A program made the translations under genes and the position numbers. A stretch of 64,000 bases of DNA from the NCBI GenBank assembly GCA_944330115.1, contig CALVIN010000005.1, positions 41,542-105,541 on the forward strand. Reading direction: 5' to 3'. This document shows positions 9,860 to 61,636 of this stretch, piece after piece (the stretch's first letter is position 1; every line of letters starts with the position of its first letter). The DNA is from an uncultured Clostridia bacterium. Lineage in GTDB: Bacteria > Bacillota > Clostridia > Christensenellales > Borkfalkiaceae. The notes beneath the pieces are model-generated. The model saw only the letters and a program-made list of their open reading frames with translations. It was not told where the DNA came from and made no database searches.

Positions 9860-9982
9860 CACTAACCCTTCCGAGGCTCGCATACGCTCGCCCCACCTTC
9901 CCTATAGGGACGGCGAGAGCGGCTGCGCTGCTTGTGAAACCCCTCCGTCACTTCGCGACACCTCCCCTCAAAGGGGCGGTAA
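9860..9982 (+). repeat. Composite intergenic repeat (AACCCTTCCGAGGCTC module plus short GAAACCCCTCCGTCAC / CCTCCCCTCAAAGGGGCGG hairpin module)
   Basis: Related copies were seen by eye at 27008-27075 (inverted), 35089-35136, 43732-43795 and 61389-61636. Confidence 0.8.
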
Positions 9983-20760: not shown

Positions 20761-23472
20761 TCATTTCACCGCGCGGGTTTTGCCGTGCGCAAACAGGCTG
20801 CGCACGAGCTTTACAACTTCCGATACGACTATTATGCTGAACGCCATTGCGAATACCTTGAGCCAGTCGATGATGTTGAGGCCGTTGGTATCGAACACGT
20901 CGCCGCCGAACTGCGTTATTATTATCTGAAGCACGAAGGTGCCTGCAAATACGGCGAGCATGATGTGGTTTTTGAGGAAGTTTTTGAATATGCTGGTGTT
21001 GCCGAGCTCCCTCGAGTTGAAGGCGTTGAACAGCTGGAAGAGCACGAACAGCGTGAATACCGCCGTGGCCTGGTGCCCCTCCTCTATGCCGAGGAAGTTG
21101 AGCTCGGTCTGCAATACGACGATGAGCGTCATATACAGGCCGTTTACTATTATGCGCGAGAGCATATCCTTTGTGACTATGCTTGAATTTCTCGGCGTGG
21201 GACTGCGGTCCATGAGGCCGTCGCGCATGGGTTCGAGGCCGAGCGTTACGGCGGGAGGGCCGTCCATGATGAGGTTTATCCACAGCATCTGCAGCGCCGT
21301 GAAGGGGTTGCCTATGTCGAGCACCACGCAGATAAACACTATGAGCATGGACGAGAGGTTTACCGTGAGCTGGAACTGAATGAAGCGCTGGAAATTTTCG
21401 TATATGCCCCTGCCCCACTGCACTGCCGTGACTATCGTGGAGAAGGAGTCGTCCAGAAGGACGATGTCGCTCGCCTCCTTCGAAACTTCGGTGCCCGTTA
21501 TGCCCATCGCAACGCCGACGTCGGCATTCTTTATGGCGGGGGCGTCGTTTATGCCGTCGCCCGTTACGGCGACTACGTTGCCCTGCGCCTTGAGCGCCTT
21601 TACCACGCGCATCTTTATTACGGGGGTGGAGCGCGCTATAACGCGTATCTTCTTTATTATCTCGGAGAACTCCTCGTCGGAGAGGTTCTCCACGTCCTTT
21701 GCCTCCACGGCGATGTGGTCGTCGTCGAGTATGCCCAGCTGGGTGGCTATCGCCTTGGCGGTGATTATGTTGTCGCCCGTGAGCATCTTTATATCTATGC
21801 CGGCATGGCGGCAGCGCTCTACGGCGGCGAACACGTCGGAGCGGAGAGGATCGGAGATGACGACGAAGCCGTCGAATATCATGCCGCTCTCAACTAAGGC
21901 GCGCTCGTTGTCGAAGTCGTACTCCCTTTCGAGGGTGCGGTGCGCAAGGCCGATAACTCTCCCCGCCTGCGCCTGGTAGGAGGCGATGGCCTCCTCCGCC
22001 GCCCTCTTATCTTCGGGCGCCATGTTGCACATGGATATTATCTTTTCGGGGCTGCCCTTGGTGTATGCCACCGCCTCGCCCATCTCGTCGACGACGGTAG
22101 TCATGTTCTTGGTTTCGGAAGAGAAGGGGTAGCGGTATATCTGCCTGTACCCGCCGCGCACCGACCGGTATTCCACGCCCGACTTGTGCGCCGCCACGAG
22201 CATTGCGCACTCGGTGGGGTTGCCTATGAACTCCGTCCTGTCGCCATTAAAGTGCACGTCGGCGGTGGAATTTACGCAGAAGTTGCGCATCATTGCGCTG
22301 TCTTTGGGGATCTCTGCGGGAGAGAGGCGGGTGTTGCCCGTCTGCACGTCGGTCACCGTCATTCTGTTTTCGGTGAGGGTGCCCGTCTTATCCGAACATA
22401 TTACGTTTATGCAGCCCACAGTCTCGCAGGCGACGAGCTTTTTGACGAGCGCGTTCTGCTTTGACATCTTTATTATGTTTATTGCAAGCGTCACCGCCAC
22501 TATCGTGGGCAGGCCCTCGGGCACGGCGGCAACTATGAGCACGATACTGTCGATAAACGCTTCGGAGAACAGACGGAATATCTCGTTTGCGTGCATGTTT
22601 GCAAACAGCAGCGCGGGATCGGGGCCTGCAAACCCCGCGACGAGTATCTCTATCACCTGCACCACAAATATGAGTGCGGCGGCTATCGCGCCCACCGTGG
22701 TTATGAGCTTGCCGAGCTTTGCAAGTTTTTCCTGCAGGGGGGTGCTCGACTTATCCTGATTGGTGAGCTCGCGGGCTATCTTGCCAAATTCGGTATTGTC
22801 GCCCACGCCCGTTATCACGGCGCGGCCCGAGCCGCCCGTTATAAAGCAGCCCGAATAGAGCATGTTGTGCCGCTCGGCGACGGGGGTGTTTTCGGCCGGG
22901 CAGATAAAGGAGGCGTCCTTTTTTACCGCCATACTCTCGCCGGTTAGGGCGCTCTCGTCGGACTGGAGCTGGGTGCTCTCTATAAGCCTGCCGTCGGCGG
23001 GCAGCTTTGCGCCCGTCTCAACACATAAAATGTCGCCTACCACCACCTCGCGCTGGGGTATCATCGTTACCTCGCCGCCGCGCACCACCTTCACCTGCGT
23101 ATCTTCGCCTATGCGCGAGAGCGCCTCGAACGCCTTTGCGCTGCGGTGCTCCATTACGACGGAGATGGCCACCGAGATGACTACGGCGACTACGATGCCC
23201 ACGCACTCTATCCAGTCGAATTCGCCGCCCGTGCACACCGAAACAATCTGCACGGCGATGGTTATGGCGAGCGCTACGAGCAGAATGATGAGCATGGGCT
23301 CGCACAGCGCCTCCCAGATGCGGCGAAGGATAGACTTGGGCTTTTCGCGCGTGAACTGGTTTTGGCCGTAAGTTTTGCGGCTCTCTTCCACCTCGGACGG
23401 GGACAGACCCTTGGAAGGGTCGACCTTCATTTCCGAGAGGACGTCATGCGCGGACTGCATGTACTCCTTCAT
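20761..23472 (-). CDS. Cation-transporting P-type ATPase (P2-type, Ca2+/Mn2+ exporter-like)
   Basis: CSDKTGTLT phosphorylation motif, TGES, TGDGINDAPA, 10-TM layout. Confidence 0.9.
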   Translation of the reverse strand: MKEYMQSAHDVLSEMKVDPSKGLSPSEVEESRKTYGQNQFTREKPKSILRRIWEALCEPMLIILLVALAITIAVQIVSVCTGGEFDWIECVGIVVAVVISVAISVVMEHRSAKAFEALSRIGEDTQVKVVRGGEVTMIPQREVVVGDILCVETGAKLPADGRLIESTQLQSDESALTGESMAVKKDASFICPAENTPVAERHNMLYSGCFITGGSGRAVITGVGDNTEFGKIARELTNQDKSSTPLQEKLAKLGKLITTVGAIAAALIFVVQVIEILVAGFAGPDPALLFANMHANEIFRLFSEAFIDSIVLIVAAVPEGLPTIVAVTLAINIIKMSKQNALVKKLVACETVGCINVICSDKTGTLTENRMTVTDVQTGNTRLSPAEIPKDSAMMRNFCVNSTADVHFNGDRTEFIGNPTECAMLVAAHKSGVEYRSVRGGYRQIYRYPFSSETKNMTTVVDEMGEAVAYTKGSPEKIISMCNMAPEDKRAAEEAIASYQAQAGRVIGLAHRTLEREYDFDNERALVESGMIFDGFVVISDPLRSDVFAAVERCRHAGIDIKMLTGDNIITAKAIATQLGILDDDHIAVEAKDVENLSDEEFSEIIKKIRVIARSTPVIKMRVVKALKAQGNVVAVTGDGINDAPAIKNADVGVAMGITGTEVSKEASDIVLLDDSFSTIVTAVQWGRGIYENFQRFIQFQLTVNLSSMLIVFICVVLDIGNPFTALQMLWINLIMDGPPAVTLGLEPMRDGLMDRSPTPRNSSIVTKDMLSRIIVNGLYMTLIVVLQTELNFLGIEEGHQATAVFTLFVLFQLFNAFNSRELGNTSIFKNFLKNHIMLAVFAGTFVLQIIITQFGGDVFDTNGLNIIDWLKVFAMAFSIIVVSEVVKLVRSLFAHGKTRAVK

Positions 23473-23553
23473 AAAAACCTCCGTTTAGAAATAAGTATAC
23501 CGGAAATAGAGGCTGCGCATACGCGCGGGCCTGCGCGGCCGATCTCCGCGCAC

Positions 23554-23588
23554 AAAAAAATACCCGCAAGCTGCCCTTCAGCTTACGG
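23554..23588 (-). terminator. Leader terminator (expression platform of the upstream riboswitch)
   Basis: Minus strand: CCGTAAGCTG-aaggg-CAGCTTGCGG followed by a T7 run, inside the ATPase 5' UTR. Confidence 0.6.
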
Positions 23589-23621
23589 TTTAAAAAAACT
23601 CACCGTATAGCCGAAAGAGGT

Positions 23622-23720
23622 TATACGTGAGTCTGATAATTTAAGGCAGGCCAGGCGCAATGCCACGATGTTGGTTGACTGCCACTCGCTTGCGCGAGCT
23701 TACTACTCCCCCACGGGATT
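23622..23720 (-). promoter_or_regulatory. Probable yybP-ykoY (Mn2+) riboswitch aptamer
   Basis: The minus strand reads CGTGGGGGAGTAG-[GCTCGC-gcaa-GCGAGT hairpin]-GGCAG...CTGCC...TATCAGACTCACG. The GGGGAGUAG hallmark and a 3' xCAGAC element close a CGTG/CACG helix. It sits upstream of a P-type ATPase, a known association. Confidence 0.55.
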
Positions 23721-23870
23721 TGATTGTAATTAAATGATAACAGAACGGGCGGGGGATGTCAACAGAATTTTTGTAAAATTTACGAAATTTATGTATTTTT
23801 TACAGCCGTGAATTCTTTGCGGGCTGCGCGCGGACGGCAAAAAAAACGGCGGGATTTTTGCAGACAAAGG

Positions 23871-24482
23871 TCACTCCACGGCGCCGGCGGAGGAATTTTG
23901 CGAATGCTCAAGCGCCTCGCCGGCATCTTCTGCGGGAGCGTTAAAAAATACCGCGTTTATAAAGCGGGCGGCGCGGGCGCAGTCCACCACATACTTCACC
24001 TGCTTTTTTACCGGCCTCCGGCCGCGGGAGATATAAAAGGTGACTTTGCCGTAGTTTAAATTGCCCGAATACGCCCAGCCGTTGAGCACAAAGGCAAGTT
24101 TTGCGCGCGAGGCCGTCACCCTTACCACCTCGGCGGCGGGGATATACTCGCGCTCCCCGTTTTTGTGGCAGAGCACGAAGAAGCCGTCGTGACGGTAGGC
24201 TATGGTGTAGGGCGCGGCGCGGCCGCTTACGCTCGCGTCGTTTACGGCGCGGCAAAAGAGCAGCACGCACAGCACGCCGTCGGCGGCGATGAGCACGGCC
24301 GTTATGCTCCAGAACAGCCATATGGTGCCGCGGAAGAACAGCACGTTGAGCGACTGGACGAGCACGAGCAGGCACGCGCTTATTATTATGGCGAGGAACA
24401 CCGAGCCCGTTATCGCCTCCCTCTTGTTTATGGTAACGCGCCCCGCTATGGGCGTTATCTTTATTCCGTCTTCATTCATCAC
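23871..24482 (-). CDS. Hypothetical membrane protein (two TM segments plus a C-terminal soluble domain)
   Basis: 203-aa ORF with hydrophobic segments (SVFLAIIISACLLVLV, LFWSITAVLIAADGVLCVLLF). I recognise no family. Confidence 0.45.
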   Translation of the reverse strand: MMNEDGIKITPIAGRVTINKREAITGSVFLAIIISACLLVLVQSLNVLFFRGTIWLFWSITAVLIAADGVLCVLLFCRAVNDASVSGRAAPYTIAYRHDGFFVLCHKNGEREYIPAAEVVRVTASRAKLAFVLNGWAYSGNLNYGKVTFYISRGRRPVKKQVKYVVDCARAARFINAVFFNAPAEDAGEALEHSQNSSAGAVE

Positions 24483-24763
24483 TGCACCCGTATACAGCGG
24501 AAGTCCTTAAAAATTTTGCCTGTATTTTACCGCTGCGCAAACTATTTTATCACCGGCGGACGGAGATGTCAAATAAGCATTTTTTTGCGCATATGCAATT
24601 TTTAGGGCGCAGAGGAAAAAAATTTGCGCATGTTTGCCCTTTTTGCGGTAAAAATACCCGCCTTTTGCATAAAATATCGGCGGGCGGCCGCATTTTTGCG
24701 GCCGCCCGCCCAACTTTTGACCGATTGTAAATTTTTGCCGCCCGCGGCGGCTCACGCAGCGCC

Positions 24764-25066
24764 TCAGCCGGCCTTTACTATATCTATGAGCGTGGTCACG
24801 CCCTGCTCGTCGAGCTGGTCGTAGATATCCTCGCGCACGTTTATGAGCGACATCTTTGCCTCGCCGAGCTTCTTTTTGGTGGAGAGGAGCAGCATTACCC
24901 CCTCCTTGGTGAGTTTTTTAACTCCGCCGCAGTCGATGACGAACTGCTTTACGCCGCCGAGGTTGTCCTTGAAAAAGGCCTCGGTCGCGGGAATGCTCTC
25001 GGCGCACACGTCGCCCTCGAGCCACACCGTCAAAAGGTCGCCCTCGCGCTGACTTCTTATATCCAT
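24764..25066 (-). CDS. STAS-domain protein (anti-sigma-factor-antagonist-like)
   Basis: 100 aa with the typical STAS pattern (LTVWLEGDV...FVIDCGGVKKLTKEGVMLLL...LINVREDIYDQLD). No partner kinase or phosphatase lies nearby. Confidence 0.7.
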   Translation of the reverse strand: MDIRSQREGDLLTVWLEGDVCAESIPATEAFFKDNLGGVKQFVIDCGGVKKLTKEGVMLLLSTKKKLGEAKMSLINVREDIYDQLDEQGVTTLIDIVKAG

Positions 25067-25349
25067 ATTACCCTCCGCGGCAGCGCCGCTTACTCTTTCA
25101 GTTCAGTTAATATAACTTACGGAGCGGGTTTTGTCAAGTCTTTTGCCGCCGCAAAGCGGGGCGTAAATGGCTGAAAACAGAGCTTTCAAAGGGAAACCTG
25201 CCGCATTTTGTCATATATTGCCGCCCGCGGGTGCCCGCTGCACGCACCAAAAATGCCGCCGTTTTGCGCTCCGCGCCTGCGTGCGCGACTACATTATATA
25301 GTCGCCCCTCTCGCAGCCTTCCGCCGGCACGCGGCCGCGGGTCAGCGCG

Positions 25350-25419
25350 GAAAAAACTTTAAAAAAATATAAAAAATTTTTGATTTACCCCTTGACAAAC
25401 GGCAAATAGATGGTATAAT
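25350..25419 (+). promoter_or_regulatory. Near-consensus sigma-A promoter with an A/T-rich UP-like tract
   Basis: UP-like aaaaaactttaaaaaaatataaaaaattttt, then -35 TTGACA (25392-25397), a 16-nt spacer, and an extended -10 TGgTATAAT (25411-25419). Confidence 0.7.
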
Positions 25420-26163
25420 GAAGGTACAAAAAGATAAAAACGAACAAAAAATGTTAGCGCTAAACATTTTAACGAATAACTTTAAAGAGGTAAAAGATGA
25501 CTTTTAAGTAGCCCCGAAAGGGGGTCAATGTTATACCGTAGAGCGGGGAGCGAAAAGCGTACCGCCCGTTGATATAAATTGAATAGCAAAAAGGAGGTAA
25601 ATCAAAATGACCAAAAAAATTCTTTACTTCCGCAAAGCTACTACGTTATAAAAGGAGGGTAGTCCAATGAACAGTTTTACCCGGGAGACCTTATTCTGAA
25701 AACACGGTTTTAATTTCGCAGGGATTTGAATCGGTTTTCTGAAATCAGGTCTGAAACCGAAGGACCGCACGTGAACGGATACGAGCGGAAAAGTCCCGAA
25801 CAAAAAATTCTATCAGATTTCAAAAGTCTGCGAAAGAGTTGAGATATTCGGACAGAAAAATTTTTTAAAGACCTGAATGAAGGGTTTTTAATTCCGGATA
25901 CAAAGATTCCGACGGACGGGAAATTAAAAAACAATTTGCCTGTATATTGAAATTTGAACGCGGAAGCGCGAAAGAAGAGAAAATTTTAGCGACGGACAGA
26001 TCCACTCCCATCTTGAAACGTTGAGGATACTGAAGTTTGAGGGCTGAAGACCGAAAGCACAGCGATTCGACCTGTATGGCGTTTGCCGCAAGTGCATGGA
26101 TGGCACCGTATAAAAAGCGGAAGCGGGTCTCGAAATTAAAATTTAATAACTTTGAAAACAATA

Positions 26164-26192
26164 CCTGCACAGACGTAATTGTGCAGGTTTTT
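26164..26192 (+). terminator. Internal terminator-like hairpin inside the ncRNA candidate
   Basis: CCTGCACA-gacgta-a-TTGTGCAGG followed by TTTTT. It could produce a shorter isoform of about 765 nt or simply be a structural helix. Confidence 0.35.
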
Positions 26193-26728
26193 GTGCCCGA
26201 ACTGCCGGTTTTAAGGGAAGGCGCGCATTCCCCCTCTGCCGCAAAGTTTTGCAGGACCGGCCGAGAGATGGGCAACAATAATATTTAAAGGCCGAATTGG
26301 GCGGGCAGAGCCGCCCGCATACAGAGCATGTTAAACGGTCTGTCTATCAACGTGTGCGGGAGGGCGATGCAACGGCCGCAAAATAGCGAAGCCCACGGGT
26401 CTTTGAATGAGCTTTTTTATCTTGAAACTGCGTATCTTTATATCCTGAAACATTATCGGAAAAATTATCGGAAACATAATTGCGGAAATGTGCCGTAGCA
26501 TACGGCACATCAGACCTGCGCACACCGCGCGGGCGTACAGGAACGAGAATTTCGCAGTCGGGAGCAAAAAAGCCGCTCCTTACACCGCGCAGCACGGCGC
26601 GGCAGGAGTTTTAAGCGCAAGTGCGGAAGGGAAGCGCGCAGTTATTGGGCAACTGCAAACCGCACATAAGGAGCCGACTTATAAGGCGCTTTGATCTTGG
26701 CGCCGAAGCTCCGTGACTGTGTAAAAGT

Positions 26729-26768
26729 ACTCCCCTTGCGGCCAAAACCGCTCGGGGAGTGTTTTTTT
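26729..26768 (+). terminator. Intrinsic terminator ending the ncRNA candidate
   Basis: ACTCCCC-tt-GCGG-ccaaaa-CCGC-tc-GGGGAGT, then G and a T7 run. Confidence 0.75.
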
Positions 26769-26927
26769 ATAAAAATATAAGGGCAGATGTGCCGCAGGCA
26801 ACCCGGCCGCAGCCATTAGCGGCCGCAGGGAGCACCGTGGCCGCGGTGTTAAACGGTTATATAGTGTGGAATAAAAACGCCGTGCTTTTATAAGTGCGGA
26901 AAAACATCTTATAGTATGAAGGCAAAA

Positions 26928-26960
26928 TTACGGCGGAGCGATTTTCCTCGCTCCGCCGTA
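26928..26960 (-). terminator. Hairpin closing the minus-strand repeat block (convergent with the ncRNA terminator)
   Basis: ACGGCGGAGCG-attttcc-tCGCTCCGCCGT, T-rich on both sides. Confidence 0.4.
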
Positions 26961-27007
26961 TTTACATTTGCCCCTCCGCCTCCCCTTTAAGGACGAGTGC
27001 GCGGCAC

Positions 27008-27300
27008 ACCTTGCCGTCCCTATAGAGAAGGTGGCAGATGCGAGCACAGCGAGCATATGACGGAAGGGTTTATATATGCGCATTCTTTTAACCCTTCTGG
27101 CACGGCTGTGCGCGCCACCGTCTCGCGCGGTGCAAGGTAAACACCGCGCTTGGTCACCGTTCGCGCCTGACATATGCGCTCACTCATCTCGCTGAGGCAC
27201 GCACAATGGGTATCCATTGTGCTATGAAATGCCTTGCTCGTCCTTCAGGGGAGACGAGGGAATATGTTACGCCGCTCTCTCCGATACCTGCCCTCTGCAC
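27008..27300 (+). repeat. Partial copy (C) of the ~320-bp structured repeat plus an inverted AACCCTTCCG module
   Basis: Core 27125-27245: GCGCGGTG-caaggtaaa-CACCGCGC, TTGGTCACCGTTCGCGC, ATATGCGCTCACTCATCTC, GCACAATGG-gtat-CCATTGTGC, TATGAAATGCC. It is collinear with 31298-31420 and 61695-61815. Confidence 0.8.
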
Positions 27301-27307
27301 CCGTGCG

Positions 27308-27548
27308 GTGAAACCCCACCTTTAATTCCTCCCCTCAAAGGGGAGGTAAATTAGTAGTATGCCCCCTCAAAGGGGAGGTGGGTTGAGCGGACTGTGCCGC
27401 TCCTTCGAGGACGAGCGAGGCAAATGCGCGAAACTGTATAGCGCGAAACGCATAATAACGGGCGGGTGGGCGGGACCACTCCACCGCCCCTTTGAGGGGA
27501 GGTGGCGCGCGAAGTGCAACGGAGCGTGACGGAGGGGTTTCACCCTCC
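27308..27548. repeat. Cluster of GC-rich hairpin repeats (CCTCCCCTCAAAGGGGAGG x3 plus the long GAAACCCCTCCGTCAC module in inverted orientation)
   Basis: Hairpins at 27328-27347, 27361-27380 and 27483-27506; ...AACGGAGCGTGACGGAGGGGTTTCAC at 27509-27545. Confidence 0.85.
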
Positions 27549-27580
27549 CCACTCTGCCATAGCGCGGACAGGCCGCGCCA

Positions 27581-28435
27581 TTACAGGCAGCAGAGCACAT
27601 TCAAGTCGGCGGAGATGCACAGCGAGCGCGGCGCGATCTCCTCGGGAGCGTAGGCCTCGCCGTAGTTTATGCAGGCGTAGCGCGCCTTTTTGTTGCCGTA
27701 CGTCATGCGCCAGAACGGATACTTTATTATCACGGGCGTGTTCATGCCAACGCCGAGCTCTAAAAAGAGCACGCGCCCGCCCGAATACTCCTTTAAAAAC
27801 TGCGCGTAGCGCTCATACGCCGCGTGCCAGCCCGCGTCCTCAACAAACTTATCGTCGGAGCGCAGGTTGGTGGTCATGGGGCCGCCGCACACGGGGCAGC
27901 GGGGAATGAGCGAGGCGGGGATCTTCATATCGCGCTGCTCGCGCAGCATGGCGCGCACCTGCTCCTCGTTATCGAAAGTTTTGTTGCAGCACGGCTTGGC
28001 GCACTGAAAGAGGCCGTAGTCGCCCTGCGTGTAAAAGAGGCGCGACTTATCGAAGCCCGCCACCTGAAAGCGGTGGTCGACGTTGGTAGTTATAACAAAA
28101 TAATTTTTATCCTTTACCAGCCTTAAGAGGGCGAGATACACCTCGCCGGCGGGCTGGTCGTAGCGGTTGTAGTATATATGCCGCGACCAATACGCCCAGA
28201 ACTCCTCCTCGGTGGGGAAGGGGTAAAAGCCGCCCGTATACATATCGTGGAAGCCGTACTTTTTTTCGAAGTCGGCAAAATACTTTTCGAACCGCGCGCC
28301 CGAGTAGCTGAACCCCGCCGCGGCCGAAAGCCCCGCGCCCGCGCCTATCACGATGGCCTCGGCATCGCTCATCCACTGCGCAAGCACCTTCAATTTGCCC
28401 TCTGTATCATCAGATTGCGGCAAGTTCGCGCTCAT
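27581..28435 (-). CDS. Sir2-family protein, macrodomain-linked (SirTM-like ADP-ribosyltransferase candidate)
   Basis: GAGAGLSAAAG Rossmann motif, TTNVDHRF, QGDYGLFQC, and a Zn ribbon C..CC ... CPVCGG. It overlaps the upstream macro gene by 26 nt. Confidence 0.75.
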   Translation of the reverse strand: MSANLPQSDDTEGKLKVLAQWMSDAEAIVIGAGAGLSAAAGFSYSGARFEKYFADFEKKYGFHDMYTGGFYPFPTEEEFWAYWSRHIYYNRYDQPAGEVYLALLRLVKDKNYFVITTNVDHRFQVAGFDKSRLFYTQGDYGLFQCAKPCCNKTFDNEEQVRAMLREQRDMKIPASLIPRCPVCGGPMTTNLRSDDKFVEDAGWHAAYERYAQFLKEYSGGRVLFLELGVGMNTPVIIKYPFWRMTYGNKKARYACINYGEAYAPEEIAPRSLCISADLNVLCCL

Positions 28436-29168
28436 ATATCTCCTCGTCCTCCTTTGAAAATACGTTGAAGATCACCTTTAACCCGCCCGCGGCCGAAAGT
28501 TTTTCCTTTACCGCCGACACGGCGACGGCGCACGCCTGCTCTTTGGGGTAGCCGTACACGCCCGTGGATATGCAGCAGAAGGCTATCGAGCGCAGCCCCA
28601 TCTCTGTCGCCCTGTCCATGCAGGAGAGGTAGCAGCTCTTAAGGTCGGCGCGGTTTTGCGCGGTGACGGCGCCGCTCACCTGCGGGCCGACGGTGTGGAA
28701 TATGTATTTGCAGGGCAGGTTATAGCCCTTAGTTACGCGCACCCTGCCGTTCGGCTCGAGCGCGCCCTTCATCATCGAGTTGCAGTCCAGCCGCACCTGC
28801 ACGCCCGCCGCCGAGTGTATGGCGTTATCTATGCAGCCGTGCAGCGGCACGAAACAGCCGAGTAGCGCGCAGTTGCAGGCGTTTACTATCGCGTCGGCAT
28901 TGAGGCGGGTTATATCGCCCCGCCACAGCGCGATGTTGCCGCGGTATTCCAGCTTATCCACGTCCACCACGCCCTTTTGGCGGGTGCAGTCGGAGAGGTA
29001 TTCGTCCTGCAGGCGCAAAAATTCTTCGCCCGCGGGCACGGGCGGGCGCACGTTGCACAGCGCGCGGAAATAGTCCGGCTTGCGCTCCTCCGCAAGTTTG
29101 GGGGCGCTTTCGCCGCGCTCGGCGCTTAAAATACCTATCAGTTTATCGAGAAGTTGACTTCTGTCCAT
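28410..29168 (-). CDS. Macro-domain protein (ADP-ribose / O-acetyl-ADP-ribose hydrolase type)
   Basis: GDITRLNADAIVNACN...GCIDNAIHSAAG...IAFCCISTGVYGYP are canonical macrodomain motifs, preceded by an ~80-aa N-terminal extension. Confidence 0.85.
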   Translation of the reverse strand: MDRSQLLDKLIGILSAERGESAPKLAEERKPDYFRALCNVRPPVPAGEEFLRLQDEYLSDCTRQKGVVDVDKLEYRGNIALWRGDITRLNADAIVNACNCALLGCFVPLHGCIDNAIHSAAGVQVRLDCNSMMKGALEPNGRVRVTKGYNLPCKYIFHTVGPQVSGAVTAQNRADLKSCYLSCMDRATEMGLRSIAFCCISTGVYGYPKEQACAVAVSAVKEKLSAAGGLKVIFNVFSKEDEEIYERELAAI

Positions 29169-32626: not shown

Positions 32627-33865
32627 ATGAATTTTTCTATGCTGGCTTTCGGCGACCTGCTCGGCGACATTGAAAACTACTTCGCCAACTTTGCTTCGCC
32701 TGCCGACAGCTGCCGCACGGTGATGCTGTGGATAGCCATAGCGCTTGTGCTGGCCTTTGTTGTGACTACTGTTGCAATAAAATTCACCGCTCCCAAGCCC
32801 GTAAACGGCGAGGAGGTAAAGGACGGCAGGCAGAAACTTGCAAACAGAATATTTTTGTTTATTGCCCTTGCCTATGTGGTGGCGGCGATAATATCGTTCA
32901 GCGCCTTTTATTACAGCGACGTAAACGCAGGCGAGGACTACCTTATCCCCATCACGTTCTATCCCCTGCTCGTGTTTGCGATAGTTGCGATAGCGGGCGC
33001 CATTGCCGTGGCATTCAAGCCCGTAAAGGCCGTAAAAATTGCCGCACTCACCATAGGCGGCTGCGCGCTTGTGGCAGCCATTGTGTGCCTTATAGTTTAC
33101 TACGCGACGGGCGACGCCAGCGAGTGGAACGGCGTTGAGCTTACGGGCAGCGACCAGGCGTGGCTGTATGCGAGCGCCATAATACTTGCCGCCGCCATAG
33201 TTGTAGTTTCCATGCTGACCGACAGGGTAAAGGGCTTCGACACGCGCGCCATCACCTTTGCCGCGGTGTGCGTGGCGCTCTCGTTCGCGCTCTCTTACAT
33301 AAGGATATTGCACATGCCCATGGGCGGCTCGATAACCCTTGCCTCCATGCTGCCCCTCATGCTCTACAGCTATATGTTCGGCTGCCGCAGGGGCCTTATC
33401 GCAGGCCTCGTTTACGGCTTTTTACAGGCCATTCAGGACCCCTGGCTGCTCCACCCCGCACAGTTCGCGCTCGACTACCTCGTAGCGTTCATGGCGATAG
33501 CGCTCACCGGGTGTCTTAGGAACGTGCCCGCGCTTAAGGGCAAGATGCGCACGCAGTTCACTTTGGGCGCGATAATAGCCGGCGTTACCCGCTTTGTTTC
33601 GCACTTCTTTTCGGGCGCGTTTGCATTCGGCGTGTTCGGCGCGGGCTATGCCGATGACTACGGCATTGCCATACTCTCCAACCCCTACATCTACTCGCTG
33701 ATATATCAGTCGATGTATGTAATTCCCGAAGTTATAATAGCCATTGTTGTGGGCGTGCTGCTTATGTCTTCGGCAAACTTACGCAGGCAGATAGTGCGCT
33801 ACGGCAACTTTGAAAAGAGCGTGGAGAGCGTGCCCCCTGAGGCCATTCCCGCAGAGAGCAAATAA
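32627..33865 (+). CDS. thiT: ThiT/YuaJ-like thiamine transporter S-component with an extra ~200-aa N-terminal multi-TM extension
   Basis: The C-terminal half (MPMGGSITLASMLPLMLYSYMFGCRRGLIAGLVYGFLQ...HPAQFALDYLVAF) resembles ThiT. The N-terminal half has about 5 further TM helices. Confidence 0.65.
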   Translation: MNFSMLAFGDLLGDIENYFANFASPADSCRTVMLWIAIALVLAFVVTTVAIKFTAPKPVNGEEVKDGRQKLANRIFLFIALAYVVAAIISFSAFYYSDVNAGEDYLIPITFYPLLVFAIVAIAGAIAVAFKPVKAVKIAALTIGGCALVAAIVCLIVYYATGDASEWNGVELTGSDQAWLYASAIILAAAIVVVSMLTDRVKGFDTRAITFAAVCVALSFALSYIRILHMPMGGSITLASMLPLMLYSYMFGCRRGLIAGLVYGFLQAIQDPWLLHPAQFALDYLVAFMAIALTGCLRNVPALKGKMRTQFTLGAIIAGVTRFVSHFFSGAFAFGVFGAGYADDYGIAILSNPYIYSLIYQSMYVIPEVIIAIVVGVLLMSSANLRRQIVRYGNFEKSVESVPPEAIPAESK

Positions 33866-35088: not shown

Positions 35089-35214
35089 GTGGAACCCCTC
35101 CGTCACTTCGTGACACCTCCCCTCGAAGGGGCGGTACCAAATGCGGCAAGATTTACCTCCCCTTTGAGGGGAGGTGGCGTGCGAAGTACAACGGAGCACG
35201 ACGGAGGGGTTTCA
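35089..35214. repeat. Inverted pair of GC-rich hairpin repeats (MITE-like configuration)
   Basis: Left: GGAACCCCTCCGTCACTTCGTGACACCTCCCCTCGAAGGGGCGGT. Right: CCTCCCCTTTGAGGGGAGGTGGCGTGCGAAGTACAACGGAGCACGACGGAGGGGTTTC. The outer ends are inverted repeats of each other. Confidence 0.85.
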
Positions 35215-43731: not shown

Positions 43732-43885
43732 GGTGAAACCCCTCCGTCACGCTCCGTTATACTGCGCGTGCCACCTCCCCTCGAAGGGGAGGTAATATAG
43801 AAAGGAGACGAGGGGAGGCGCGGCCTCGAAGGGGAGGTAAATATAGAAAGGACGCGTACCCAAAGGGGAGGTGAATACAGAAAAG
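43732..43885 (+). repeat. GC-rich hairpin repeat (long variant) followed by about 3 degenerate tandem GAAGGGGAGGTAAATATAGAAAGGA units
   Basis: GTGAAACCCCTCCGTCACGCTCCGTTATACTGCGCGTGCCACCTCCCCTCGAAGGGGAGGT, then repeats at about 43783, 43826 and 43861. Confidence 0.85.
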
Positions 43886-61388: not shown

Positions 61389-61636
61389 TAACCCTTCCGA
61401 GGCTCACATATGTTCGCCCCCCCACCTCCCCTTCGAGGGGAGGTGGATTTGCCGAAGCGTTAGCGAGGCAAAGACGGATGGGTTTCACTTCCAAGCAAAT
61501 AATAGCGCGAGGCTGAATTTAGTTCAGCCGTTACGCGCAAAACAATATTTGCAACTCCAATTTACTGAACGGTGAAACCCCTCCGTCGCTCCTCACCGAG
61601 TTCGTCGCGCCACCTCCCGCTCAAAGGGGAGGTGAC
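61389..61636. repeat. GC-rich hairpin repeat cluster (AACCCTTCCGAGGCTC module, CCACCTCCCCTTCGAGGGGAGGTGG hairpin, degenerate inverted module, long plus-orientation module)
   Basis: 61389-61446, 61473-61489 and 61571-61636 match modules at 9860-9982, 27308-27548, 35089-35214 and 43732-43795. Confidence 0.85.

Follow-up and report, generated by a model that had tools for sequence, protein, structure and literature searches.

Within a 64-kb stretch of contig CALVIN010000005.1 from an uncultured Clostridia bacterium (hereafter the window, meaning all 64,000 nucleotides analysed), a plus-strand unit running from a strong promoter to an intrinsic terminator likely specifies a stand-alone RNA of ~1.3 kb that acts through its fold, represents an apparently undescribed class and probably engages ribosomes at its 5' end. 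An initial annotation of the window had proposed just such a stand-alone structured RNA, and this proposal holds up in the element's synteny, conservation, covariation, rod-like fold and lack of any Rfam match. Coordinates below refer to the whole window, and "+n" counts from the predicted start at 25426. The conserved object is a unit of 1.17-1.4 kb in four parts: a 5' domain, a rod, a 3' core, and a variable tail ending in the terminator. As far as we have searched, the class is apparently confined to gut Clostridia resembling 'Candidatus Coproplasma'.

The element is found in about 18 species-level lineages, always at the same syntenic position. We collected relatives through database relatives of the neighbouring STAS protein and their contigs (five such proteins, 62-97% identical), through a 20-nt exact seed in GTDB species genomes, and through a 23-nt exact seed in metagenomes, both seeds coming from invariant stretches and the longer one including the CCCC-GAAA-GGGG region; a scan of genome contigs with the neighbouring STAS protein found no relative. 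The collection comprises 46 copies, which fall into 18 clusters at 97% identity. Ten contigs of the same species are 98-100% identical. The hosts include 'Candidatus Coproplasma' species and Clostridia metagenome-assembled genomes (MAGs) from chicken, human and other guts. Positions 25361-26290 align at 69-84% to 17 loci, and conservation along the unit is uneven: the 5' domain (+1 to +335) is 86-96% identical in DNA, the middle (+336 to +635) 41-77% and the 3' core (+636 to +775) 82-96%, the rest being poorly conserved. For comparison, identity across relatives is 47-74% for the adjacent STAS protein and 78-90% for the nearby ATPase, so that the 5' domain in particular is far more conserved than the flanking STAS protein. 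Within the species, the ~870-nt core has 0-2 single-nucleotide polymorphisms, versus 6-10 in the ~200-nt spacer upstream of the promoter. One human gut metagenome contig (L042; 1,394 nt, 106x coverage) spans +26 to ~+1419, nearly exactly the RNA; its extent and its high stated coverage could reflect a transcript abundant in that sample, or an element shared between genomes at whose two ends the assembly broke off.

Conservation of the element starts at its promoter. The strong promoter claimed at 25392-25419 is indeed there: TTGACA, a 16-nt spacer and TG-n-TATAAT make the sole 12/12 match within 23000-29000, a segment holding 11 promoter-like sites against 3.9 expected by shuffling. Both hexamers and the extended -10 are invariant in 18 aligned lineages, with a variable spacer, and an A/T run followed by GATTTACCCC is kept in most lineages. 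The intrinsic terminator claimed at 26729-26768 is equally real, with ACTCCCC (26729-26735) complementary to GGGGAGT (26754-26760) ahead of T7. A strong GC-rich terminator lies at +1170 to +1400 in 12 of 16 representative lineages; in the tail alignment three further lineages have a comparable GC-rich terminal hairpin, and one contig is truncated. These terminators are functionally equivalent although their sequences are unrelated between lineages. The low GC content noticed earlier is also confirmed (0.37-0.42 in 25400-26150 versus ~0.58 in the flanks), and positive GC and AT skews make the plus strand purine-rich. From the strong, constitutive-type promoter we infer, as the initial annotation did, that the RNA is abundant.

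Nothing of protein size lies between promoter and terminator. The plus-strand open reading frames (ORFs) are 83, 68, 56 and 44 aa long and the longest on the minus strand is 137 aa; neither the 83-aa nor the 137-aa ORF matches Pfam, in keeping with the impression that these longer frames do not look like proteins. Because the 83-aa frame (TTG start; 70 aa from ATG 26076) ends exactly where strong conservation ends, we tested it as a gene and rejected it: non-triplet indels break it in relatives, and its variable columns fall evenly by codon phase (39/37/38), giving no codon periodicity. Among 5.8 billion proteins its sole relatives are five spurious ORF calls, three of which could be traced to contigs, all in the same clade. 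Six-frame translations match relatives only in fragments, as DNA-level conservation predicts, with nothing past ~+920, and that comparison found no reading frame consistently conserved across relatives. By frame, periodicity and protein similarity alike, the element is neither a protein gene nor a pseudogene.

The pattern of substitution instead points to a folded RNA. Nine helices were defined from a scan for compatible, covarying stacked columns together with inspection, using alignment A2 of 16 lineages. Across their 49 proposed pairs, 92.7% of cells are paired, compared with 35-44% in controls whose 3' partners were displaced by 1-3 columns, and 18 pairs have changed on both sides, against 8.5 +/- 1.9 in shuffled alignments (0 of 500 reach 18) and 3-8 in the displaced controls. 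Covariation is therefore above the controls, in a set of few and related sequences. The 67 G-U cells would be A-C mismatches on the opposite strand, which identifies the plus strand as the folded RNA, and the folding energy of the first 900 nt has a z-score of -4.75.

The most informative helix is a long-range one, 25728-25739 with 26053-26068, which closes the rod domain. Its closing helices covary across lineages (GAAUC/GAUUC, AAAUC/GAUUU and AGAUC/GAUCU; GUUUCC/GGAAAU and GUUUUG/CAAAAC). When the 16 lineages are folded singly, all 16 have a rod-like minimum-energy fold, with a rod-like fraction of 0.87 versus 0.17 for dinucleotide shuffles, only 0.3% of which reach 0.8, and the mean z-score of the rod is -3.8. 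RNAalifold on ten lineages gives 54 nested rod pairs, 20 with compensatory changes, and the fold is retained despite sequence identities of 41-77%. A profile of the element also weakly matches its own reverse complement in the rod region (nhmmer). At the apex, the loop core UCCGGAUA is invariant and its flanking stem covaries (UUUC/GAAA versus UUCC/GGAA). The strand GGUUUUC (25733-25739), just past the third micro-ORF described below, has three possible partners, namely the end of that micro-ORF, a nearby CUGAAAGCC and the distal strand of the rod, and compensation backs the distal one only. We rejected the local hairpin UUCUGAAAAC/GUUUUCGGAA in favour of the long-range helix, as the two informative substitutions (in L030 and L050) are compensated in the long-range partner only, although the local hairpin may exist as an alternative state.

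Downstream of the rod, the 3' core is built of a mostly invariant first module, an internal terminator-like hairpin and a three-way junction. In the first module one hairpin changes from GUGC/GCAC to GUGU/ACAC in L035 and L051, and 11 of the junction's 15 pairs have changed on both sides. The initial annotation had listed the hairpin at 26164-26187 and missed both its run of five U residues and its conservation in every relative; in L040 and L041 one of its pairs has changed from A-U to G-C, which is compensatory. This hairpin with its U5 may yield a shorter isoform of ~770 nt, and it is not the sole transcript end, because conserved, covarying structure lies 3' of it. All the other hairpins listed earlier are likewise present in the sequence, but conservation extends only to CCCC-GAAA-GGGG, TCGGTTT/AAACCGA and 26164-26187; those at 26299-26318, 26490-26508 and GGCGC/GCGCC, along with the repeated ACACCGCGC, fall in the poorly conserved tail and are lineage-specific. 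Within the tail, one module stands out: the arms of its inner hairpin vary yet stay complementary across 13 lineages. This was judged by per-sequence folds with no formal pair count, the MAFFT alignment being out of structural register there. At 26447-26470 a 12-nt GAAA(C/A)ATTATCG occurs twice in tandem, and five of the six same-species contigs that were compared have a single copy, so that strains differ in copy number within the variable tail.

The statement that there is no credible ORF stands for protein-sized ORFs, but it overlooked three conserved micro-ORFs, each preceded by a strong Shine-Dalgarno (SD) site, at 25497-25511 (sORF1), 25607-25651 (sORF2) and 25667-25699 (sORF3), with lengths of 4, 13-20 and 10 codons. 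They lie in the ~300-nt 5' domain, the most conserved part of the RNA, together with a hairpin (25448-25470) whose sequence is identical in 45 of 45 copies. The start and stop codons of sORF1 are invariant, and its variants are ACT/AAG/AAA and TTT/TTC. Since sORF2 lies partly within a variable stretch, its frame can be tested: all 16 lineages keep an ATG 4-12 nt past the SD, in frame with an invariant AAA-GCU-ACU-ACG and with no intervening stop, through 15 distinct variants with segment lengths of 31-38 nt and length changes of 3 nt. Shuffled segments satisfy the same combination of SD spacing, start, frame and absence of a stop in 1.1-3.6% of trials. Changes within sORF2 are synonymous (ACC/ACG/ACU, CGC/CGU, UUC/UUU) or conservative (K/R, L/F), and in 7 of 16 representative lineages it ends at a TGA overlapping the ATG of sORF3. 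Because the frame is kept through these variants, versus 1-4% in shuffles, we consider sORF2 a maintained reading frame whose translation is putative. RNA-level constraint is evident as well. Synonymous changes are all but missing from sORF3 and from the KATT codons of sORF2, and all three SD sites are paired in the predicted conserved fold: SD2 (GGAGGUAAA) is predicted to pair with codons 6-8 of sORF2 itself (UUUACUUCC), and the GGGUA of SD3 with UACCC inside sORF3. Near-lack of synonymous variation together with SD pairing indicates that coding and RNA-level constraints overlap here.

These micro-ORFs raise the question of whether the transcript is simply an mRNA for micro-peptides, such as the M-T-K-K-x-L-Y-F-x-K-A-T-T of sORF2, with ~1 kb of structured 3' untranslated region (UTR) that serves stability or translation. 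Strong, properly spaced SD sites and the preserved sORF2 frame, with its 3-nt indels and synonymous and conservative changes, are what one would expect of such an mRNA. But the peptides would have only 4, 13-20 and 10 residues, the scarcity of synonymous changes in sORF3 and KATT points to RNA-level constraint, and covarying helices and invariant loops over 1 kb exceed what a 3' UTR normally needs. We therefore consider this explanation improbable.

It is also conceivable that the unit is a cis-regulatory leader or attenuator, in which the micro-ORFs and the internal hairpin with its U5 control read-through into a lost or more distant gene. Three micro-ORFs resembling leader peptides, sequestered SD sites and a terminator-like hairpin at +738 to +768 fit this idea, but what surrounds them makes it very unlikely. 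As the initial annotation had noted for the window, the RNA has no downstream gene to lead, and this is true of every lineage examined with flanking DNA: the element is antisense to all its neighbours and no same-strand gene follows, so that the defining feature of a riboswitch or attenuator leader is absent. A second strong terminator is present in nearly all lineages, the sequence past the internal hairpin is conserved and covarying, and the micro-ORFs end ~460 nt before that hairpin. Finally, the decayed remains of a protein gene, mobile element or prophage, or a nonfunctional AT-rich spacer with a chance promoter and terminator would account for a GC content below that of the genome and for the several short spurious ORFs called by gene finders, but this possibility is largely refuted, and to us barely credible, given conservation above that of the flanking coding genes, compensatory substitutions, the lack of frame-consistent protein remnants, the presence of one copy per locus in constant synteny, no flanking element repeats around the unit, and no copy in INPHARED phages, IMG/VR (two seeds) or plasmid collections.

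Three further leads on the locus came to nothing or are side matters. A ~110-nt inverted similarity (27437-27542 versus 23743-23850, 75%) brackets the membrane protein, the STAS gene and the RNA, and sits among palindromic hairpins downstream of the SIR2-like gene; we rejected a mobile cassette on this basis, as a repeat search gave no long terminal repeats. A 55-nt duplication in the strain contig L002 proved to be a scaffold N-gap with overlapping ends. A role as a sponge for CsrA/RsmA was raised because GGA occurs within many conserved islands, and dropped because GGA is not enriched (30 versus 26.7 +/- 3.6 in dinucleotide shuffles).

Several points weigh against our reading of the element as a structured RNA that engages ribosomes. 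Transcription, the RNA ends and translation of the micro-ORFs are all inferred from sequence. The 5' domain is near-invariant and its fold rests on energy, with covariation in only 4 of 81 pairs, so the predicted 5' structure, SD pairings included, is essentially without covariation support. The shuffle statistics are optimistic, coming from 16-18 related lineages of one narrow clade, and the apparent narrowness of that clade is itself conditional on the exact 20-23-nt seeds through which all distant relatives were reached. Most sequences are metagenome contigs or MAGs. At least two of them, L013 and L017, look mosaic: they combine their own species' promoter and STAS gene with a middle and 3' core, apparently of the L027 type, that are 100% identical between the two, despite different samples and assemblers; they could be rod-cassette recombinants between species, or chimeric assemblies across the ultraconserved 5' domain. 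The roles that we discuss below as stabiliser, folding switch and scaffold are analogies. As a separate observation, L017 and L018 both end exactly past the internal hairpin.

How might such an RNA work? We propose that ribosomes would load on the micro-ORFs as the 5' domain leaves the polymerase; loading would have to precede folding, since every SD site is paired once the conserved fold is complete and is free only until its partner strand has been transcribed. By analogy with the 5' ribosome-binding stabilisers of Bacillota, such early translation would shield the long untranslated body and make it more stable, and it could decide whether GGUUUUC (25733-25739) forms its local or its long-range pairing. 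Once folded, the body would scaffold proteins or further copies of the RNA. On the latter point, three invariant loops carry 6-nt palindromes (AGCGCU, UCCGGA and GCGCGC), and these loops never vary. One could extend this to a translation-gated, self-assembling giant RNA, in which ribosomes crossing the micro-ORFs during transcription steer the folding of the 5' domain and the long-range helix, and the palindromic loops then form homo-oligomers or a large ribonucleoprotein. Such an RNA would be akin to the RNA-only assemblies of OLE, GOLLD and ROOL, with the added property of being coupled to the translational state of the cell; we give this more specific model only a small chance of being right. 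An intramolecular contact between the AGCGCU and GCGCGC loops (GCGCU with GGCGC) is equally possible as self-association.

Table 1. Features of the RNA element and its flanking signals in window coordinates.
Feature	Position	Strand	Remarks
A/T-rich UP-like tract	25352-25391	+	upstream of -35 hexamer; read directly from sequence
Sigma-70 promoter, extended -10	25392-25419	+	12/12 match
Predicted full-length transcript, ~1,343 nt	25426-26768	+	predicted start at A 7 nt after -10
5' hairpin	25448-25470	+	invariant loop with palindrome AGCGCU (25456-25461); RNAalifold pairs 26-33/41-49
SD1 (AAAGAGGT) and sORF1	25484-25511	+	ATG ACT TTT AAG TAG = M-(T/K)-F-K
CCCC-GAAA-GGGG hairpin (GNRA tetraloop)	25512-25523	+	abuts sORF1 stop codon; invariant in all copies
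SD2 (AAGGAGGT) and sORF2	25591-25651	+	M-T-K-K-I-L-Y-F-R-K-A-T-T-L
SD3 (AAGGAGGG) and sORF3	25652-25699	+	M-N-S-F-T-R-E-T-L-F; nearly nucleotide-invariant
Rod domain, ~340-nt imperfect long hairpin	25728-26068	+	closed by 25728-25732/26064-26068 and 25734-25739/26053-26058
Rod apical loop AAUUCCGGAUAC	25890-25901	+	palindrome UCCGGA (25893-25898); <=8 nt from rod centre in every lineage
3' core, first module	26070-26128	+	ACCUG/CGGGU (26070-74/26124-28) enclosing two helices; mostly invariant
Helices inside first 3'-core module	26086-89/26117-20; 26092-95/26103-06	+	CCGC/GCGG; hairpin GUGC/GCAC
Internal 10-bp hairpin with U5, terminator-like	26163-26193	+	at +660 to +770 in 16/16 representative lineages
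Three-way junction	26204-26261	+	GCCGGU/ACCGGC (26204-09/26256-61), two hairpins inside
Junction hairpin GGGAA/UUCCC	26215-19/26228-32	+	invariant loop GGCGCGCAU, palindrome GCGCGC (26221-26226)
Junction hairpin CUGC/GCAG	26236-39/26251-54	+	
Variable 3' tail with conserved islands	26290-26728	+	islands UAGCGG, UCGCAGNCGG, GGUCUGUGUA (tail alignment)
Tail module GUGCGG/CCGCAC	26621-26/26660-65	+	encloses hairpin GCAGUU/AACUGC (26638-43/26651-56)
Terminal intrinsic terminator	26729-26768	+	hairpin -21.6 kcal/mol and T7

The genes flanking the element in the window are all minus-strand. Those upstream encode a weak-STAS protein (24764-25066), a 203-aa membrane protein for which no Pfam family was found and a P-type Ca-ATPase, and those downstream encode, among others, a SIR2-like protein and a Macro-domain protein. 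Across lineages the STAS gene lies on one side, and a Na+/H+ exchanger (three lineages), a SIR2-like cluster or an HD gene on the other. The Macro-domain protein and the divergent SIR2-like protein (28410-29168 and 27581-28435, minus strand) overlap by 26 nt, and among related species the pair is present or absent as a block with PNPOx/ferredoxin, NAD-binding and Rrf2 genes, a block that resembles sirtuin-macrodomain operons. Between the SIR2-like stop codon and a bidirectional terminator (26929-26960) lie ~620 nt (26960-27580) with no called gene in related contigs; an 81-aa minus-strand ORF (26928-27173) overlaps the terminator and has only a borderline Pfam match. This interval holds three hairpins (27331-27347, 27363-27379 and 27483-27503) of a family resembling repetitive extragenic palindromes (REPs), CCCCTC(A/G)AAGGGGAGGT, with further copies at 9960, 35115-35175, 43773-43838 and 61424-61633. 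The family has 16 matches at <=3 mismatches in 64 kb versus 0.07 expected, is intergenic and often paired, and similar copies lie downstream of the element in L019. In the related locus L032 (307-402, minus strand) there is a sub-threshold match to the thiamine pyrophosphate (TPP) riboswitch (33.2 bits versus 54.3, E 0.009); the window itself has no TPP match at the gathering score and has a thiamine-transporter-like gene at 32627-33865.

No Rfam 15 family matches the element, including GOLLD, ROOL, OLE, HEARO, raiA and group I and group II introns, and a permissive scan of 25100-27000 gave only scattered matches to unrelated families (E 0.27-8.4); nor was there an Rfam match inside the element at seven homologous loci. 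Likewise, the hallmarks of RNase P, tmRNA, 6S and SRP RNA that the initial annotation had failed to see are absent by Rfam, and ARAGORN finds no tRNA or tmRNA in the 64 kb. The only match in the window at gathering score is a ribosomal protein L10 leader elsewhere (RF00557, 50007-50158, minus strand; 69.2 bits versus 44). We found no description of an equivalent RNA in the literature searched, a search that was not exhaustive, and the element seeds are absent from the 200 of 408 supplement files of Fremin & Bhatt 2021 (PMC8040213) that were covered, which is not conclusive.

To our knowledge, hardly any structured RNA of more than 1 kb has been described from bacteria apart from ribosomal RNA, and we know of none described that is larger than GOLLD, at ~800 nt. 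A new, unrelated class of 1.2-1.4 kb would add to the small set of 'ornate' RNAs with unsolved chemistry, and it would do so with four separable domains, the most conserved of which holds ribosome-binding sites and micro-ORFs that are not known from the other classes. Experiments could take hold of the RNA by its three palindromic loops, its 150-bp rod, its switchable helix or its three start codons, and would bear on large bacterial RNAs as assemblies, scaffolds or translation sensors. The hosts, though uncultured, are common anaerobes of the chicken, mouse and human gut.

Parts of this architecture have parallels in known systems. Like 6S RNA, the element is a stand-alone RNA with a long imperfect rod as a main feature. 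6S RNA, which is abundant and sequesters RNA polymerase, is ~180-200 nt long with a central bubble resembling an open promoter, whereas here the rod is one of four domains and no Rfam 6S match is found. Dual-function RNAs such as RNAIII/hld of Staphylococcus aureus, SR1/SR1P of Bacillus subtilis and VR-RNA of Clostridium perfringens also combine a structured RNA with a small ORF. Their ORFs encode peptides of 26-43 aa within RNAs of 200-500 nt that act by antisense pairing, while the micro-ORFs here have 4-20 aa, the element has no homology to these RNAs, and no complementarity to a target came to light, none having been looked for; the likeness is one of principle only. With the 5' stabilisers of Bacillota (the STAB-SD of cry, the ermC leader and the aprE leader) the element shares a strong SD or short ORF that lies close to the 5' end and plays no coding role for what follows. 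In these stabilisers, according to work by Agaisse and Lereclus in 1996 and by the Bechhofer laboratory, a bound or stalled ribosome reportedly guards the downstream RNA from decay that depends on the 5' end. Those are single elements ahead of a protein gene, unlike the three SD/ORF units set in a 300-nt ultraconserved fold ahead of a noncoding body.

The closest comparisons are with the large ornate RNAs. The initial likening to GOLLD, ROOL and OLE was apt insofar as the element is large, ornate and stand-alone, but not as to size class, as 1.17-1.4 kb exceeds all three. GOLLD (~800 nt) and ROOL (~580 nt) are typically tied to prophages or tRNA genes. The element resembles these two (RF01998 and RF03087) in being ornate and very large, with its own promoter and terminator and conserved loops, and differs in having no covariance-model match to them, no tRNA in the 64 kb, no copy on a phage or viral contig, a syntenic chromosomal site and three micro-ORFs, which are not known from GOLLD or ROOL. 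OLE adjoins the gene for a membrane-protein partner. Like OLE (RF01071), the element is large, highly conserved and multi-domain, stands alone and belongs to anaerobic Bacillota, and a membrane protein and a STAS gene are its constant upstream neighbours, although this adjacency says little because synteny in the neighbourhood extends across the whole clade. An oapA-type gene was not identified beside the element, in neighbours that were not compared with Oap proteins. It has no sequence or structure match to OLE, is about twice as long, and has SD-preceded micro-ORFs, which are not known from OLE. GOLLD and ROOL form RNA-only multimers in which kissing loops are prominent, and OLE forms dimers by means of a symmetric kissing loop whose core is palindromic, symmetric palindromic kissing loops holding both OLE and GOLLD multimers together (PMC12286853).

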